A stretch of 61,437 bases of DNA, filler included. It is 4 parts of 4 records of this genome, joined end to end, with 100 filler letters (N's around TTAATTAATTAA, not from the genome) between each part and the next. Parts side by side here need not be neighbours in the genome. Positions count along the whole stretch, not along the records: positions 1 to 22,201 come from SRR20825010_1415; 3 more parts are not named here. One strand, 5' to 3'. The notes beneath the pieces are model-generated. The model did not search any database, was not told the DNA's origin, and worked only from the letters and a program-made list of their open reading frames with translations. The position numbers were made by a program, and so were the translations under genes. This document shows positions 1,951-8,117 of this stretch, one piece after another. How positions within the stretch are numbered: the first letter of the stretch is position 1; each line of letters begins with the position of its first letter.

Positions 1951-2361
1951 ATGTCCAAAAGCCATTTTTATTTTAAAAAGCATTTCGTGCTTTTTCTATC
2001 AGCGATATACCTGCTCAATCCATTGCAGGAATACCTCGTTGAATCGATGCATACTTTGTCTCATTTACTGATCTATTCCGAAAATTCACATCACGAAAAA
2101 GACCATCACATGGGCCATGAGTATACTCATGAACACAAGGTGGTTTCGTTTTTTTCAAAAATATTTTCTTCCAATGAAAAGACTAGTGATCATGATAGCA
2201 CACATTTTAATTACACCTTCGACACCCATTTTGCGCAAGCCTATCCAAAACTTGATTTCCACTTAAAAACTCCTATAAAACATATTTTTTCATACACCTT
2301 CCACTACTATACAAGTGTAAAAATTATCCCCACACCGCCTCCCGAAGTATTCTTTTCTTAA
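1951..2361 (+). CDS. His-rich membrane-anchored small protein with C-terminal PTPPP; candidate regulatory leader ORF for the downstream TonB receptor
   Basis: 136 aa, 17 His, N-terminal hydrophobic stretch, IIPTPPPEVFFS end, 161 bp upstream of the TBDR. Function is inferred. Confidence 0.7.
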   Translation: MSKSHFYFKKHFVLFLSAIYLLNPLQEYLVESMHTLSHLLIYSENSHHEKDHHMGHEYTHEHKVVSFFSKIFSSNEKTSDHDSTHFNYTFDTHFAQAYPKLDFHLKTPIKHIFSYTFHYYTSVKIIPTPPPEVFFS

Positions 2362-2522
2362 GCAAGCCGAAGTTTATTAAGAATTAATTTTGTTATAGCA
2401 TTTTGTGTTTTAGAAACTAACTGCCTTTAAAAACGGGGGGTTCTGAAGAATTTCTATAGGTGCGCATTTCAATTTTTAGATAAACTCACATCCTAGAATC
2501 AATAATTTTTAATCAATACCCT

Positions 2523-4745
2523 ATGAAAAGAATATTATTAGGGGTCTTGCTGCTATGCTTTAGTTTTGCGACATCGCAATCACTAAAAGGAAAAGTAGTT
2601 GGCCCAAACAACATACCCTTAGAAAATGTAGCTGTTTTTGACCAATCTTCTGGTAACCATACCCATACCGATGCAACAGGAAATTTTTCGCTTGAAAACA
2701 CTTCGGAAAACGACCAAATACGTTTTTCAATTTTAGGTTTTACAACAACTGAATACAAAGTATCCATAGCTAGTTTTAACGCACCTATTACCATAACTTT
2801 AAATGAAGCGGCAGTTTCTTTAGCACAAGTTACCATCACTCCTGAAGTTAATACGCTAAGTCAAATTTTAGCGGTCGACTTAAAAACCGCACCTGTTAAA
2901 TCCTCTCAAGAAATACTACGAAAAGTTCCTGGGCTTCTTATTGGGCAACACGCAGGTGGAGGAAAAGCAGAGCAATTGTTTTTGCGTGGTTTTGACATTG
3001 ACCACGGAACAGACATCAATCTTTCTGTTGATGGTATGCCAGTAAATATGGTATCACATGCGCATGGGCAAGGCTATAGTGATTTACATTTTTTAATTCC
3101 AGAAACTATTGAAGCAATTTCATTTGGTAAAGGCCCATACAATGCAGTTTATGGCGATTTTGCAACTGCAGGTTTTGTGAATTTTAAAACCCTAAACAAG
3201 CTTAAAAAAAGCTCTGTATCTATTGAATATGGTGAATTTGATTCGTTTAGAACTGTTGGTCTTTTTAACATCCTAGATTCTCCTACTAATAATGCATATG
3301 TTGCAGCATCCTTAAATACTTTTAATGGTCCGTTTGAATCGCCTCAAAATTTTAATCGGTTCAATATAATGGCAAAATACAATTTGAATCTTCCAAACCA
3401 ACAAAAACTTAGTTTAACAGCATCGCATTTTCAAAGCAAATGGGACGCTTCAGGACAAGTGCCTCAGCGCGCTATAGACTCTGGAACAATTACCCGATTT
3501 GGCGCCATAGACGCTACTGAAGGCGGAAACACAAGCCGCACGAATTTGCTTATTAATCATTCGAAAATGCTTTCAGACAATGAAAAACTAGAGACCCGTG
3601 CTTACATAACAAAGTATGATTTTGAGCTATTTTCAAACTTTACTTTTTATTTAGATGATGCAATTAATGGTGACCAAATTGCCCAACAAGAGGACCGTAC
3701 AATTTTAGGTTTTCAAACAGCATACACAAACAAAAACAGCGATAGCAAACAAGGTATTGAATACACTGCCGGATTGGGAATGCGTTATGACGATGTTAAT
3801 GAAATAGCACTTTCCCATACTAAAAACAGGTATGAACTTTTAGACCGATTGGCATATGGAAATGTAGATCAGATAAACACTTATGCTTTTTTAAATACCT
3901 CATTTAAGTTGGGCGATTTAAAAATTAACCCAGCACTTCGGCTTGATTATTTTAAGTTTGATTATGAAAATAAATTATCCGCGATTTATGATAATAAAAG
4001 TGAGGCAAAGGTTTTTGCAAGCCCAAAATTAAATTTTATTTATAGTCCAAATCGTGATTTTCAGCTCTTTCTTAAAACTGGAATTGGTTTTCATTCAAAC
4101 GACACCCGCGTCGTAGTTGCTAATAATGGCAAAACAATTTTACCTGCTGCTTATGGTGCAGATTTAGGTGGAATTTATAAATTAACCGACAACCTTATTG
4201 TAAACACTGCTTTTTGGGCATTATTCTTAGAACAAGAATTTGTGTATGTTGGCGACGCTGGAATTGTAGAGCCAAGTGGCAAAACAAAAAGGCTAGGTGT
4301 AGATTTTGGCTTTCGATATGAAGCTATGCCTTGGTTGTATTTTTATGGAGATCTAAACTATACCTATGCGCGAAGTACAGAAGAAGTTAGTGGAATGGAT
4401 TACATTCCTCTTGCACCAGATTTAACAACTACAGGAGGAATTGCAGTAGAAAATATTGGTAATTTTTCTGGAGGATTAAATTACCGTTATCTAAATGATA
4501 GAGCGGCAAATGAAGACAATAGTATTATTGCTAAAGGTTATTTTGTAACCGATTTCAATATAAACTATACGTATAGAAATTTTGTTTTTGGAATAATTAT
4601 TGAAAATATACTAGATACCGAGTGGAATGAAACCCAATTTGCTACGGAAAGTAGACTGTTTAATGAAGTTGATGCTGTTGAAGAAATACATTTTACACCT
4701 GGAACTCCATTTTTCCTTAGAGGAAAGGTAACCGTAAATTTTTAA
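2523..4745 (+). CDS. TonB-dependent receptor, probably for metal uptake
   Basis: Signal peptide, carboxypeptidase-regulatory-like N-domain, plug with LRGFD and NMVSHAHGQGY, C-terminal Phe (KVTVNF). Confidence 0.9.
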   Translation: MKRILLGVLLLCFSFATSQSLKGKVVGPNNIPLENVAVFDQSSGNHTHTDATGNFSLENTSENDQIRFSILGFTTTEYKVSIASFNAPITITLNEAAVSLAQVTITPEVNTLSQILAVDLKTAPVKSSQEILRKVPGLLIGQHAGGGKAEQLFLRGFDIDHGTDINLSVDGMPVNMVSHAHGQGYSDLHFLIPETIEAISFGKGPYNAVYGDFATAGFVNFKTLNKLKKSSVSIEYGEFDSFRTVGLFNILDSPTNNAYVAASLNTFNGPFESPQNFNRFNIMAKYNLNLPNQQKLSLTASHFQSKWDASGQVPQRAIDSGTITRFGAIDATEGGNTSRTNLLINHSKMLSDNEKLETRAYITKYDFELFSNFTFYLDDAINGDQIAQQEDRTILGFQTAYTNKNSDSKQGIEYTAGLGMRYDDVNEIALSHTKNRYELLDRLAYGNVDQINTYAFLNTSFKLGDLKINPALRLDYFKFDYENKLSAIYDNKSEAKVFASPKLNFIYSPNRDFQLFLKTGIGFHSNDTRVVVANNGKTILPAAYGADLGGIYKLTDNLIVNTAFWALFLEQEFVYVGDAGIVEPSGKTKRLGVDFGFRYEAMPWLYFYGDLNYTYARSTEEVSGMDYIPLAPDLTTTGGIAVENIGNFSGGLNYRYLNDRAANEDNSIIAKGYFVTDFNINYTYRNFVFGIIIENILDTEWNETQFATESRLFNEVDAVEEIHFTPGTPFFLRGKVTVNF

Positions 4746-4802: not shown

Positions 4803-5678
4803 ATGAACATTGCCATTTTATCGCGTGGAGAAACATTGTATTCCACTAAAAGTCTTTTAAATGCTGGTGAAGCTCGAAACCACAACATGGAAGTTTTAGA
4901 CCCTTCCCTTTGCTCGCTTGCCATTGAAAACGGAAAAGCTGTTTTGTATTTTCAAGATGAATTGGTTGATGATCTAGACGCAATTATTCCACGTATTGGT
5001 GCTTCCAACACCTATTTTGGAACCACGGTTGTTCGTCATTTTGAAGCTATGGGAGTTTTTTCAGTAGTTTCTTCGGAAGGGATAACTAACAGCCGCGATA
5101 AATGGACTTGTTTTCAAATACTTTCCAAACATCATATTCCCGTTCCAAGGACGCTTTATGCTTCTTTTTATGAATTTGAAGAACAATTAAAAACATTTAA
5201 AGACAAACCCATAATCATAAAACTTTTGGAAGGCACGCATGGCGAAGGTGTTATTCTTACTGAAAATCCTCAAAATGCTTTAGCAACCATTGAAACCTTA
5301 AACGCTGCTGGCGTAAAATTTTTATTGCAAGAATTTATTGAAGAAGCCAAAGGCGCAGACATTCGTGCTATTGTGGTTGATGGCGTTGTTGTTGCAGCTA
5401 TGAAAAGAAAATCTAAAGCGGGTGAATTTAGAAGTAATCTGCATCGTGGTGGTACTTCTGAATTAATTGAACTTACTGCAACCGAAGAAAAAATTGCGCT
5501 AAAAGCTGCAAAAGCAATGGGTCTTGGTTTTTGTGGAATTGATATGCTTCAATCAAAAAATGGACCCTTGGTTTTAGAAATTAACAGCACTCCAGGACTC
5601 GAAGGTATTGAAAATACTTCTGGAAGAAATGTTTCAAAAAGTGTAATTGGGTATATTGAAAGGAATCGTAAAAAGTAG
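4803..5678 (+). CDS. rimK: RimK-family ATP-grasp alpha-L-glutamate ligase, paralog 1
   Basis: [43 protein letters not shown]. Confidence 0.88.
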   Translation: MNIAILSRGETLYSTKSLLNAGEARNHNMEVLDPSLCSLAIENGKAVLYFQDELVDDLDAIIPRIGASNTYFGTTVVRHFEAMGVFSVVSSEGITNSRDKWTCFQILSKHHIPVPRTLYASFYEFEEQLKTFKDKPIIIKLLEGTHGEGVILTENPQNALATIETLNAAGVKFLLQEFIEEAKGADIRAIVVDGVVVAAMKRKSKAGEFRSNLHRGGTSELIELTATEEKIALKAAKAMGLGFCGIDMLQSKNGPLVLEINSTPGLEGIENTSGRNVSKSVIGYIERNRKK

Positions 5679-5818
5679 TAGTTTTTATTGTAGCTGGCGA
5701 TAATTTTTTGCATTAGCCCATTATTCATTGCATACGCCAATTAATAATTTGAAATATCTAATTTGTAATTTCGATTTTAATTTCGATTTCATACCTTGCG
5801 TTTACAAATCCTTAAACA

Positions 5819-6244
5819 TTGAAAAGAAACATCGGCAGAATAGACAAAGCAGATTTCCCCTTGCTAAATTTATTCGACATTGAAGTGAAAGTTGATACTG
5901 GAGCGTATACGTCATCCATACATTGCAAAAATATGACCGTTGAGGATAATTATTTGAAATGTATTTTTCTGGACGAAGAGCATCCCAATTATCACGAAAA
6001 GGAAATTATTTTTGACGAATATGATGTGAAGGTTGTGAAAAGCAGCAACGGACAATCTGAAGCGCGTTATAGAATAAAAACCGAGATTTTACTTTTCGGT
6101 GAAACACAAGAAATATATTTAACATTGAGCGATCGCGAAGAAATGCGTTTTCCAGTGCTTTTGGGAAGAAGCTTTTTAAGCAAAAAATATATTGTAGATA
6201 TAAACAAAACAAACCTTTCCTTTAAATTAAAAACTAAAAAATGA
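5819..6244 (+). CDS. RimK-associated retropepsin-like peptidase (the 'ATP-dependent zinc protease'/RimB-like family)
   Basis: [12 protein letters not shown] and [15 protein letters not shown] motifs; TTG start; overlaps the next rimK start. Confidence 0.88.
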
Positions 6245-7113
6245 ATATCAAGATCTTATCGGCGAACGCAAATTTATATTCTACAAAACGCCTTATAGAA
6301 GCTGCAAAGAGCAGAAAGCACAATGTGGAGGTTATAAACCACGCAAAGTGTGATATTGTAATTGAAAAGAAAAATCCGGTAATTTATTATAAAGGTCATA
6401 AGTTAGACCATACCGATGCCGTAATACCACGTATTGGAGCTTCCGTTACCTTTTATGGAACTGCCGTAGTTCGCCAGTTTGAAATGATGCGTGTTTTTAC
6501 CACCACAGAATCTCAAGCCTTGGTTCGCTCACGCGATAAGTTGCGAAGCTTACAGGTACTTTCACGAGCGGGATTGGGGTTGCCAAAAACTGTTTTTACC
6601 AATTATTCAAAAAACGTAAAAGAAATTGTAGACCAAGCTGGTGGAGCCCCAGTAATCATTAAACTTTTGGAAGGAACACAAGGTATTGGCGTTATTTTGG
6701 CAGAAACACGAAAAGCTGCAGAATCTGTAATTGAAGCTTTCAATAATTTGCAAGCACGTGTAATTGTTCAAGAGTTTATTAAGGAAGCTGGCGGAGCAGA
6801 TATTCGTGCTTTTATTGTTGATGGGCAAGTAATTGGTGCAATGAAGCGACAAGGAAAGGAAGGCGAGTTTAGAAGTAATTTACACCGCGGCGGTACTGCT
6901 ACCGTTATAAAACTCACCGATGAAGAAGAAACTGCAGCCCTAAAAGCTGCAAAAGCAATGGGCTTAGGTATTGCTGGAGTAGATATGCTACAATCTGCAC
7001 GTGGCCCGCTAATTCTGGAAGTAAATTCGTCTCCTGGTTTGGAGGGAATTGAACAAGCCACAGGTAAAGACATTGCAAACTCCATCATAAAATACATTGA
7101 ACGCAACATATAA
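6241..7113 (+). CDS. rimK: RimK-family alpha-L-glutamate ligase, paralog 2 (closer to canonical RimK)
   Basis: [53 protein letters not shown]. Confidence 0.95.
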
Positions 7114-7115
7114 CT

Positions 7116-8117
7116 ATGGCCAAAAAAGAAGAACGCGATATTATAATTTTAAATGAGCGCATTGCGCTGGGTGAAAGCAAAACGATAGATTTTAGCATTG
7201 CGAAGCTATATACATCTACAAATGTTGAAATTCCAATTATAATTGAACGTGCTTCAATACCAGGACCAACTATTTTAATTACCGCTGCTATTCATGGAGA
7301 TGAAATAAACGGCGTGGAAATAGTTAGACAGCTTATAGCCAGAAAGTTAAACAAACCCAAGCGTGGAACCATCATTTGTATCCCCATTCTAAATGTTTTT
7401 GGTTTTCTAAACGGAGATCGATCTTTCCCAGACGGAAGGGATTTAAACAGAGTTTTTCCAGGAACCAAAACGGGCTCATTAGCGAGTAGGGTTGCGTATT
7501 ATTTCAGTAAAAAAATATTGCCACACGCAGATTATTGCCTCGATTTTCATACGGGTGGCGCAAGCAGATTCAATGCCGCGCAGATTAGAATAAAACCCGG
7601 TGATGAAAAATTACTTGAACTCGCAAAAGTGTTTAATGCCCCTTTTACGGTTTATTCAAATACCATTGAAAAATCCTACCGAAAAACATGTCAAAAAATG
7701 GGGATTCCCATTCTTCTTTTTGAAGGTGGAAAAAGCCGTGAAAGCAACAAACATATAGTAAAAGAAGGTGTTGATGGAATCCTTCGCGTGTTAAAACATT
7801 TAGATATGCTAGGCATAAAACATAGTGCCCCAGAACCGCAATCTAAAACAGTTATTATTGAAAAAAGCAAATGGATACGCGCTTTCAAAAGTGGATTACT
7901 TCACGTAAAAATTGAGTGCAACAAACATGTTGAAAGAGGAGAGTTTCTTGCTACAATTACTGACCCTTATGGCAAAATGAGATTTAAAGTTACAGCTCCA
8001 AATGAAGGCTATATTATTAATGTAAATCAATCTCCAATTGTAAATCAGGGGGATGCTATTTTTCATATTTCAACCATAAATACAACGAATGTTGAAGATG
8101 AAGAAAGAGAAGACTAA
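7116..8117 (+). CDS. Succinylglutamate desuccinylase/aspartoacylase family (M14) metallohydrolase
   Basis: HGDEING, DLNRVFPG, DFHTG, EGG motifs; acidic tail VEDEERED. Confidence 0.92.
   Translation: MAKKEERDIIILNERIALGESKTIDFSIAKLYTSTNVEIPIIIERASIPGPTILITAAIHGDEINGVEIVRQLIARKLNKPKRGTIICIPILNVFGFLNGDRSFPDGRDLNRVFPGTKTGSLASRVAYYFSKKILPHADYCLDFHTGGASRFNAAQIRIKPGDEKLLELAKVFNAPFTVYSNTIEKSYRKTCQKMGIPILLFEGGKSRESNKHIVKEGVDGILRVLKHLDMLGIKHSAPEPQSKTVIIEKSKWIRAFKSGLLHVKIECNKHVERGEFLATITDPYGKMRFKVTAPNEGYIINVNQSPIVNQGDAIFHISTINTTNVEDEERED

Follow-up and report, generated by a model that had tools for sequence, protein, structure and literature searches.

A histidine-rich leader family ahead of a TonB-dependent receptor in Aequorivita and its candidate role as a cis-acting metal-sensing arrest switch

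The stretch of DNA analysed here, which we call the window (61,437 nucleotides, filler included, in four joined parts, the first of which covers positions 1 to 22,201 and comes from SRR20825010_1415), belongs to Aequorivita, a marine flavobacterium (Flavobacteriaceae). On its plus strand, to which all window coordinates below refer, it carries a histidine-rich, cysteine-free open reading frame (ORF) of 136 codons, here named the leader (1951-2361), followed after an intergenic spacer of 161 nt (2362-2522) by a co-oriented gene for a TonB-dependent receptor (TBDR) of 740 residues (2523-4745). As judged from sequence comparison, the leader ORF is a conserved protein family of Bacteroidota without annotation. 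Two of its features go beyond an earlier note on this DNA: a ruler of 37 residues between a histidine motif and a pair of prolines close to the C-terminus, and a covarying anti-start stem, in which the last codons of the leader pair with the start of the receptor gene. We propose that translation of the leader probably gates translation of the receptor through this stem. The full model, in which the leader is a translated, cis-acting, metal-sensing arrest switch over receptor translation, we regard as having about even chances. More tentatively still, and at somewhat less than an even bet, the leader may represent a histidine-only nascent-chain metal sensor, the first of its kind, in which a ruler of 36-37 residues would place the DKH motif at the tunnel exit, metal-dependent folding of the histidines would tune the pause, and the AUG would be masked by the last codons of the leader itself.

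The leader family, its fixed spacing and the pairing of its tail

The leader protein, delimited from the ORF translation, its homologues and alignments A1 and A2, begins with MSKSHFYFKKHFVLFLSAIYLLNP. After a Lys-rich start, the hydrophobic segment HFVLFLSAIYLLN (codons 12-24, 1984-2022) forms a candidate export signal or signal anchor; the most hydrophobic Kyte-Doolittle 13-mer, beginning with residue 13, averages 1.93 and has three Lys/Arg and no Asp/Glu ahead of it, and 73 family sequences give a median of 2.15 for the corresponding 13-mer, with two to four Lys/Arg before it. AlphaFold places a helix at residues 3-21, overlapping this segment, and the sequence shows no evident AxA site for cleavage. 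The presumed metal ligands are concentrated in a His cluster (codons 34-62, 2050-2136), quoted in the earlier note as HTLSH...SHHEKDHHMGHEYTHEH and consisting of HxxxH (H34, H38), HH (47-48), DH (51-52), and HxH (60, 62). A further motif, DTH in the window and DKH in the family (codons 91-93, 2221-2229), lies 37 residues ahead of P130. The codons CCG CCT CCC (residues 129-131, 2335-2343) encode the PPP that represents the candidate ribosome pause or arrest site, and they are followed by five sense codons, EVFFS, and TAA, the C-terminus reading IPTPPPEVFFS. The 136-residue ORF with its N-terminal hydrophobic segment, 17 His, no Cys, and PTPPP five residues before the stop, as well as the 161-bp distance to a co-oriented TBDR with SHAHGQGY in its plug, had all been described in the earlier note, and each was found in its place.

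No Pfam or NCBIfam family was matched by the leader protein, and a convincing Pfam match was given by none of 31 family members. Relatives with 53-89% identity are encoded at 15 genome loci, mostly of Aequorivita, the closest being locus L001 from Aequorivita sp. Q41 (89% identical), and PPPE is found near the C-terminus in 12/12 full-length Aequorivita genome copies (55-89% identity). A search of 1.84 billion proteins, as cluster representatives, returned 32 at E<=1e-3, and the frame is open and protein-conserved in those 12 full-length copies and in 27 metagenome loci. Still, the family is rare, being present in four of the 401 genomes sampled in the class and in one of 301 in the order of G374. 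In A2, the 31-sequence leader alignment (23-60% identity to the window protein), positions H34, H38, H60, P130, and P131 are invariant, and Y20, H47, H48, H62, and D91-K92-H93 are nearly so; HxxxH, HxH, DKH, and the C-terminal PP(P) remain fixed even in relatives at 23-36% identity. Cysteine is absent from 22 of the 31 members, and there is no conserved Cys column. In a non-redundant set of leaders (n=51, 60% identity or less, anchored on the last Pro), a PP run near the C-terminus is found in 51/51, the motif before the stop being [TSLA]PPP or E/R/Q/L-PP across the family.

The distance between these elements is as constant as the elements themselves. H93 and P130 are separated by 37 residues, ungapped, in 28/31 members (39, 40, and 40 in the remaining three), and H62 of the HxH motif precedes P130 by 66-68 residues in 27/31. 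PP is followed by five residues in the median and lies 2-6 residues from the stop in 28/31 members. Over the 51 non-redundant leaders, DKH occupies positions -40 to -38 from the last Pro, and most positions of the linker carry less than 1 bit, the exceptions being semi-conserved aromatics at -18, -16, -11, and -8, and a Lys at -21/-22. Supplied with the family alignment, AlphaFold predicted no compact fold (pLDDT 72, pTM 0.28), with helices at residues 3-21, 23-45, and 62-73, and coil at residues 96-136. Conservation of the His motifs, of the terminal PP(P), and of the spacing between them, which the earlier note had singled out as its first check, is thus borne out. Conserved spacing between CXXC and RAPP (45 intervening residues) matters for regulation in CruR, according to PMC9426467, and the two families share a fixed spacing over a weakly conserved, unstructured linker that joins a ligand motif to a terminal Pro-Pro (PMC9426467).

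The second observation was made at the RNA level. When a segment running from the leader tail through the spacer to nucleotide 20 of the receptor gene was folded as one RNA, the last codons of the leader recurrently paired with the receptor start among the relatives. In the window, the anti-start strand, covering the leader codons V-F-F-S (2346-2357, with the core TATTCTTTTC at 2348-2357), pairs with a start-side strand extending from the G of the ATG through receptor codon 5 (2525-2536, with the core GAAAAGAATA at 2525-2534). This stem of 12 pairs (-12.5 kcal/mol) appears in both the minimum free energy and the centroid folds, and is equalled by 0/200 shuffles and by none of the other 27-nt windows taken from the leader ORF. 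A survey of 24 non-redundant leader/receptor pairs found the stem in eight lineages (the window, L002, L022, L023, L028, L029, L032, and L045), with L024 being marginal. In these eight, the duplexes formed within each locus range from -9.3 to -14.6 kcal/mol, at most 3/200 shuffles are as good (0 in 7/8), and at most 2% of the other windows of the leader ORF do as well (none in 7/8); the own pairs are better than permuted partners in 5000/5000 permutations. According to the partition function, the partners of the start region lie 2-19 nt past the last Pro codon in these lineages.

Sequence changes within the stem support it too. The third base of receptor codon 3 forms an A-U pair in the window, C-G in L028, and U-A in L032, the stem of L023 is made of TTTTCATCG with CGATGAAAA, and in L022 the paired stretch lies immediately 5' of the ATG. 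RNAalifold, applied to six loci with short spacers (53-68 nt), returned this stem only, with 11 pairs, three of them changed on both sides; 90.9% of the cells of this alignment are paired, compared to 82.4% for column shuffles (0/500 reach the observed value) and at most 51.5% when the partners are slid by 1-3 columns. The stem is kept across spacers of 53-217 nt in the stem lineages. The conserved terminal Phe-Ser can be understood from the same pairing, since TTT TCA TAA is the complement of TTATGAAA (TTTTCAT against ATGAAAA). In the in silico folds, the receptor AUG is sequestered whenever the final six or so leader codons are free of a ribosome.

The spacers of some Aequorivita species are longer than those of others. 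Those of L002 (6415-6631), L003 (6418-6572), L004 (6418-6629), L006 (6406-6620), and L008 (6418-6597) contain an extra 90-150 nt, compared to the 65-67 nt of L005, L007, and L009-L011. The extra DNA consists of long, GC-rich, near-perfect hairpins resembling insertions of the REP/MITE type (repetitive extragenic palindromes or miniature inverted-repeat transposable elements), and the tail-start pairing is kept around them.

Proposed mechanism and rival explanations

In the mechanism we propose, the 136-residue ORF would be translated in cis and would govern translation of the receptor, with the PPP acting as a programmed pause. The mRNA channel of the ribosome reaches approximately 12-15 nt beyond the P-site codon. 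With this footprint, a ribosome holding Pro130 or Pro131 in its P site would unwind about seven of the 12 pairs, since the five-codon tail after PP brings the anti-start strand within its reach, and, as the five pairs left over are mostly A-U, the start codon would stay accessible throughout the pause. How long the ribosome waits would thus set the yield of receptor. The nascent chain itself would be the sensor: with the ribosome at PPP, DKH would be located about at the tunnel exit, and HxxxH, HH, and HxH would already be outside, where coordination of a metal by the histidines would alter the length of the pause. Compaction of the emerged chain by metal could either shorten the pause, as in the CruR type, or lengthen it, as in the CutF type. 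For an uptake receptor we favour the first option, in which the absence of metal would lead to a long pause and to synthesis of the receptor, and its presence would relieve the pause, allow the stem to re-form, and switch the receptor off. The sensing part of the leader may be exported, as its hydrophobic N-terminus and the analogy with CutF suggest. Since Bacteroidota largely initiate translation without Shine-Dalgarno pairing, masking of the start codon would be the natural equivalent of hiding a ribosome-binding site.

Several observations weigh against this mechanism, in whole or in part. Taken in its entirety, the region 2335-2545 is no more stably folded than its shuffles (z 0.07), so that the support comes from the specific stem and its covariation. 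A direct tail-start stem is missing from 16 of the 24 lineages, many of which have shorter tails (PPPQHS, EPPKFS, or RPPKV before the stop); start masking is therefore not a family-wide mechanism, and another output is needed in those lineages, perhaps Rho-dependent attenuation as in CruR. The eight stem lineages may form one clade, in which case they would represent fewer independent events than lineages. A terminating ribosome at the leader stop would also open the stem, in which case coupling without arrest suffices. Conservation at the protein level extends over the entire leader, the helix behind HxH (FFSKIFSS) included, which fits a function after release as well. The Bacteroidota -7 promoter consensus, TAnnTTTG, is found upstream of the leader in 6/24 loci and within the spacer in 1/24, namely the window, where the -7-like TAATTTTG (2385-2392), if a promoter, would give a transcript devoid of the anti-start strand; given its absence from the nearest relative, L001, we treat it as chance. 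The leader is, in addition, optional for the receptor family. A metagenome scan with the receptor alignment A4 gave 80 loci (receptors at 49-82% identity), of which nine lack upstream DNA and 71 are evaluable, and the leader is absent upstream in 44 of these 71. The reverse relation, which speaks for the mechanism, is constant: the leader, wherever present, is co-oriented with and adjoins this receptor family. Lastly, pausing at PPP alone is normally relieved by EF-P (10.1101/2025.02.05.636593), and the Pro motif of CutF is described as not being a strong staller by itself (PMC9973294).

The conservation of the protein over its full length in Aequorivita, together with that of its amphipathic helices bearing the His motifs and with its signal-like N-terminus, leads to the main rival, a serious one that we nevertheless consider less likely than the arrest model: a stable, exported or membrane-anchored, His-rich metal-binding protein acting in trans with the receptor, for instance by receiving or buffering the imported metal, where the stem would merely couple synthesis of the two proteins and the PPP would be structural. 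By geometry, termination at the leader stop should suffice to open the stem, with no arrest needed, which suits this alternative; the semi-conserved aromatics at -18, -16, -11, and -8 could form a beta-strand ahead of PP, and the zinc-uptake protein ZrgA is weakly matched (E 0.23, below threshold) on account of the His-rich composition. However, it leaves unexplained the invariance of PP(P), its position 2-6 residues from the stop in 28/31 members, and the exact 37-residue spacing from DKH to PP over a poorly conserved linker. No compact fold is predicted for such a protein (pTM 0.28), and the C-terminal F-S is better explained at the RNA level, by the complementarity of TTTTCAT to ATGAAAA and by the compensatory changes.

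The arrest switch could also act on transcription rather than on access to the start codon. Under a CruR-type attenuation, the pause at PPP would shield the nascent RNA from Rho or control a terminator in the spacer, and read-through would be the regulated step. The 16/24 lineages without a start-masking stem do need another output, spacers are long (median 138 nt, as in cruR operons; PMC9426467), and RAPP-type DUF2946 leaders exist in Bacteroidota, several of them before receptor-like genes. The leader RNA is, moreover, rich in C and poor in G (in the window, 23.8% C and 11.4% G; mean C minus G, +6.4 points), but this excess derives largely from the His (CAY) and Pro codons. No intrinsic-terminator-like site was found in 1750-2650, and the covarying stem points to translational control in the lineage of the window. 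We hold attenuation as the main output to be distinctly improbable. As for a chance ORF in a non-coding spacer, with the His-rich frame untranslated and the receptor under its own promoter alone, the single -7-like motif in the window spacer speaks for it. Against it stand the protein-level conservation of the frame, open in 12 full-length Aequorivita copies and at 27 metagenome loci, the 32 matching cluster representatives, and the invariance of the motifs at 23-36% identity, which make it very improbable indeed.

The receptor, its surroundings and hints of a substrate

The receptor (2523-4745), identified through Pfam, NCBIfam, and alignment A4, is built of a CarbopepD_reg-like N-terminal domain, a plug, and a barrel. 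Pfam matches include Plug (2.6e-15, residues 113-217) and CarbopepD_reg_2 (1.2e-14), and NCBIfam places the TonB-hemin subfamily over residues 115-523 and a PqqU-type model over 128-687, with no curated NCBIfam equivalog cut-off being reached. Its C-terminus, VTVNF, ends in an aromatic residue, as in the barrels of TonB-dependent receptors. The receptor carries VNMVSHAHGQGYSDLHF, the SHAHGQGY of its plug is invariant in four aligned orthologues at 48-57% identity (A4), and matches in the PDB are at the level of the plug only. Its link to the leader marks the receptor family with this invariant motif as a putative importer of a metal or a metallophore among marine Flavobacteriia.

The gene order uvrC (minus strand)/leader/TBDR/rimK-like is kept in the 11 Aequorivita loci with both genes intact; of two others, L015 has a truncated leader and no receptor downstream, and L014 has both genes broken. 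Across the relatives, the spacer measures 53-510 nt, with a median of 138. Among the evaluable metagenome loci, 28/71 have neither the leader nor a gene for a tetratricopeptide repeat (TPR) protein upstream of the receptor, and one of these 28, L074, has a divergent, His-bearing ORF ending in PPP that the model missed. In 16/71 loci (L057, L059, L060, L062, L064, L076, L077, L081, L082, L084, L087, L091, L093, L099, L101, and L102), the leader is replaced by a TPR-repeat protein of approximately 430-470 residues that ends in ...YELGP... and whose gene abuts or overlaps the receptor start. In L024 (4563-5927) all three genes occur together, first TPR, then leader, then receptor, and L079 has two paralogous leader-family ORFs (1440-1838 and 2430-2828), about 590 nt apart, ahead of one receptor.

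Downstream of the receptor, the window encodes a RimK-like ATP-grasp protein (4803-5678), a small ORF (5819-6244), a second RimK-like protein (6241-7113), and a 333-residue ORF (7116-8117). The counterpart of the small ORF in L028 matches the Pfam family Zn_protease (putative ATP-dependent zinc protease family). This cluster (4803-8117) follows the receptor in all Aequorivita loci, and no link between it and the leader was found. On the other side, the intergenic region between uvrC and the leader (1815-1950) is unusually conserved, with a mean column identity of 87% over 11 Aequorivita loci and with invariant blocks such as CTCAAAGATACTT and TTGCGTA.CTAT, to which no known motif was assigned; at the sequence level, this conservation fits shared divergent promoter or operator sites. 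Two sigma-70-like sites were found in 1750-2650, no more than in shuffles, and the sigma-70 consensus is not relevant to Bacteroidota. A known riboswitch was considered and rejected, as an Rfam scan of 1700-2700 gave no matches at E<=1.

Two kinds of neighbourhood offer hints of what the receptor might import. In L023 (418-5992), a distant leader/receptor pair lies directly behind ureE, ureF, ureG, ureD, a gene for a 233-residue unannotated membrane protein, and genes for a Porin_O_P protein and for a transporter of urea, a setting that suggests nickel. In five lineages (L044 130-2412, L051 85-2382, L053 181-2148, L066 119-2386, and L075 44-2401), a gene of the non-ribosomal peptide synthetase (NRPS) type, with AMP-binding and PP-binding domains plus a Condensation domain in L075, is located directly upstream of the leader, and import of an NRPS-made metallophore by the receptor is suggested there. 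Ni, Zn, Co, or a metallophore complex are possible ligands for the leader.

Comparison with CruR, CutF and other known systems

To our knowledge, CruR and CutF are the only metal-sensing arrest leaders dissected so far, both of them sensing copper through cysteines and both from Proteobacteria. If the leader is indeed a histidine-only sensor, arrest-peptide sensing would no longer be confined to copper and cysteine but would take in Ni, Zn, Co, or a metallophore, as well as a phylum that initiates translation in another way, and a function would be assigned to a family of small proteins that lacks Pfam or NCBIfam annotation. The leader family offers a testable case of the CruR/CutF logic with another ligand chemistry, its strict spacer length is suited to force-profile work, and masking of the start codon by the coding tail of the leader would be an output suited to bacteria that initiate largely without Shine-Dalgarno sequences.

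The mechanisms of CruR and CutF are established (PMC9426467; PMC9973294; 10.1101/2025.02.05.636593), and the analogy drawn with them in the earlier note stands as far as architecture is concerned, given the terminal PP(P) in 51/51 leaders, the fixed 37-residue spacing in 28/31, and the covarying stem. Membership in DUF2946 is, on the other hand, undetectable. PF11162 (DUF2946) gave no match at E<=1 for the leader of the window, none at E<=10 for 31 family members, and none at E<=0.01 in a six-frame search of 5/5 leader-bearing genomes, and the model does work in this phylum, where 7/301 Bacteroidota genomes matched. An hhalign comparison of A2 with six Bacteroidota DUF2946 proteins reached a probability of 47.7% over the N-terminal 40 columns only, and, set against the DUF2946 profile, the leader family has neither a conserved CXXC nor RAPP, the PP core being common to both. 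On this sequence evidence, the leader is not a demonstrable member of DUF2946.

Canonical DUF2946 proteins of Bacteroidota (L105, L107-L111) were also seen, with Cys motifs and with RAPP or RGPP located 2-4 residues from the stop, and several of their genes lie upstream of CarbopepD_reg/TonB-receptor-like genes. The copper-type leader thus occurs in this phylum too. As for the novelty in Bacteroidota claimed in the earlier note, one search of the literature for reports of a histidine leader ahead of a TonB receptor in Bacteroidetes, judged by title and the start of the abstract, returned nothing that looked relevant; the claim is narrowed by the catalogue of 2023, which already lists Bacteroidota CutF-like proteins and His-only clusters (PMC9973294). 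In that catalogue, 19% of 5,334 CutF-like proteins come from Bacteroidota, and clusters 14 and 17 are histidine-only and located beside HupE/UreJ genes, catalogued there without experiments (PMC9973294); the leader described here adjoins a TonB receptor instead. Of the four features by which Ozturk et al. 2023 delimit CutF-like proteins, the leader has three: it is shorter than 150 residues, its PP falls among the last 15 of them, and a gene on its own strand lies less than 1000 nt away. For the fourth, an N-terminal signal peptide, the hydrophobic segment is a candidate.

The aromatics 8-18 positions before the arrest point can be likened to those of SecM/VemP/MifM-type peptides, and aromatic contacts with the tunnel are a feature of SecM. 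These peptides end in an arrest element, carry an export signal and, once the ribosome stalls, unmask an initiation region downstream (10.1101/2025.02.05.636593); the leader has a candidate for each of these. They differ in monitoring the secretion machinery rather than a metal, and they show no sequence similarity to the leader. CzcI, a metal-sensing regulator encoded upstream of czcCBA, is counted among the CutF-like proteins in PMC9973294, where it is described as devoid of a C-terminal proline motif. In a language-model atlas, the CzcI-like cluster (PF28244) ranked second for the leader (0.95, 143/256 features shared), a feature score given without alignment or E-value, and an hmmscan of the leader returned no CzcI-like match. 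The likeness consists of this feature score only, and CzcI-like proteins, unlike the leader, lack the proline motif, as far as described (PMC9973294).

CutF from Rhodobacter capsulatus (cutFOG) shares with the leader the C-terminal PPP, and it combines this with an export signal, for which the leader has a candidate, and with metal ligands spaced i, i+4, CxxxC in CutF and the presumed HxxxH here (PMC9973294). Stalling at its PPP melts the stem that hides the cutO ribosome-binding site (PMC9973294; 10.1101/2025.02.05.636593), and the leader is predicted to resemble it in that a stall site would let the ribosome melt a stem blocking initiation of the next gene. In contrast, CutF controls a detoxifying oxidase that is turned on with copper, and its stem hides the Shine-Dalgarno sequence within the spacer (PMC9973294; 10.1101/2025.02.05.636593), whereas here the target would be an uptake receptor, the start codon would be the masked element, and the masking strand lies inside the coding tail of the leader.

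A similar layout is that of CruR (Bp2923) from Bordetella pertussis, in the operon cruR-bfrG(crtA)-bp2921, with a first gene of approximately 140 codons that encodes an export-type signal, an internal metal motif, and Pro-Pro near the stop (PMC9426467), the first two of which have putative counterparts in the leader and the third a direct one. Its spacer to the TonB-dependent transporter measures 162 bp, against 161 nt here (PMC9426467), and in both cases the leader accompanies part of the transporter family, cruR being present in >40% of crtA operons (PMC12914433) and the leader in 27/71 loci. The receptor of the window is not a close relative of CrtA. CruR combines CXXC with RAPP across 45 intervening residues, and responds to copper through Rho-dependent termination (PMC9426467); the leader described here combines HxxxH, HxH, and DKH with (T/S)PPP across a spacer of 36-37 residues, and its tail pairs with the start codon of the receptor.

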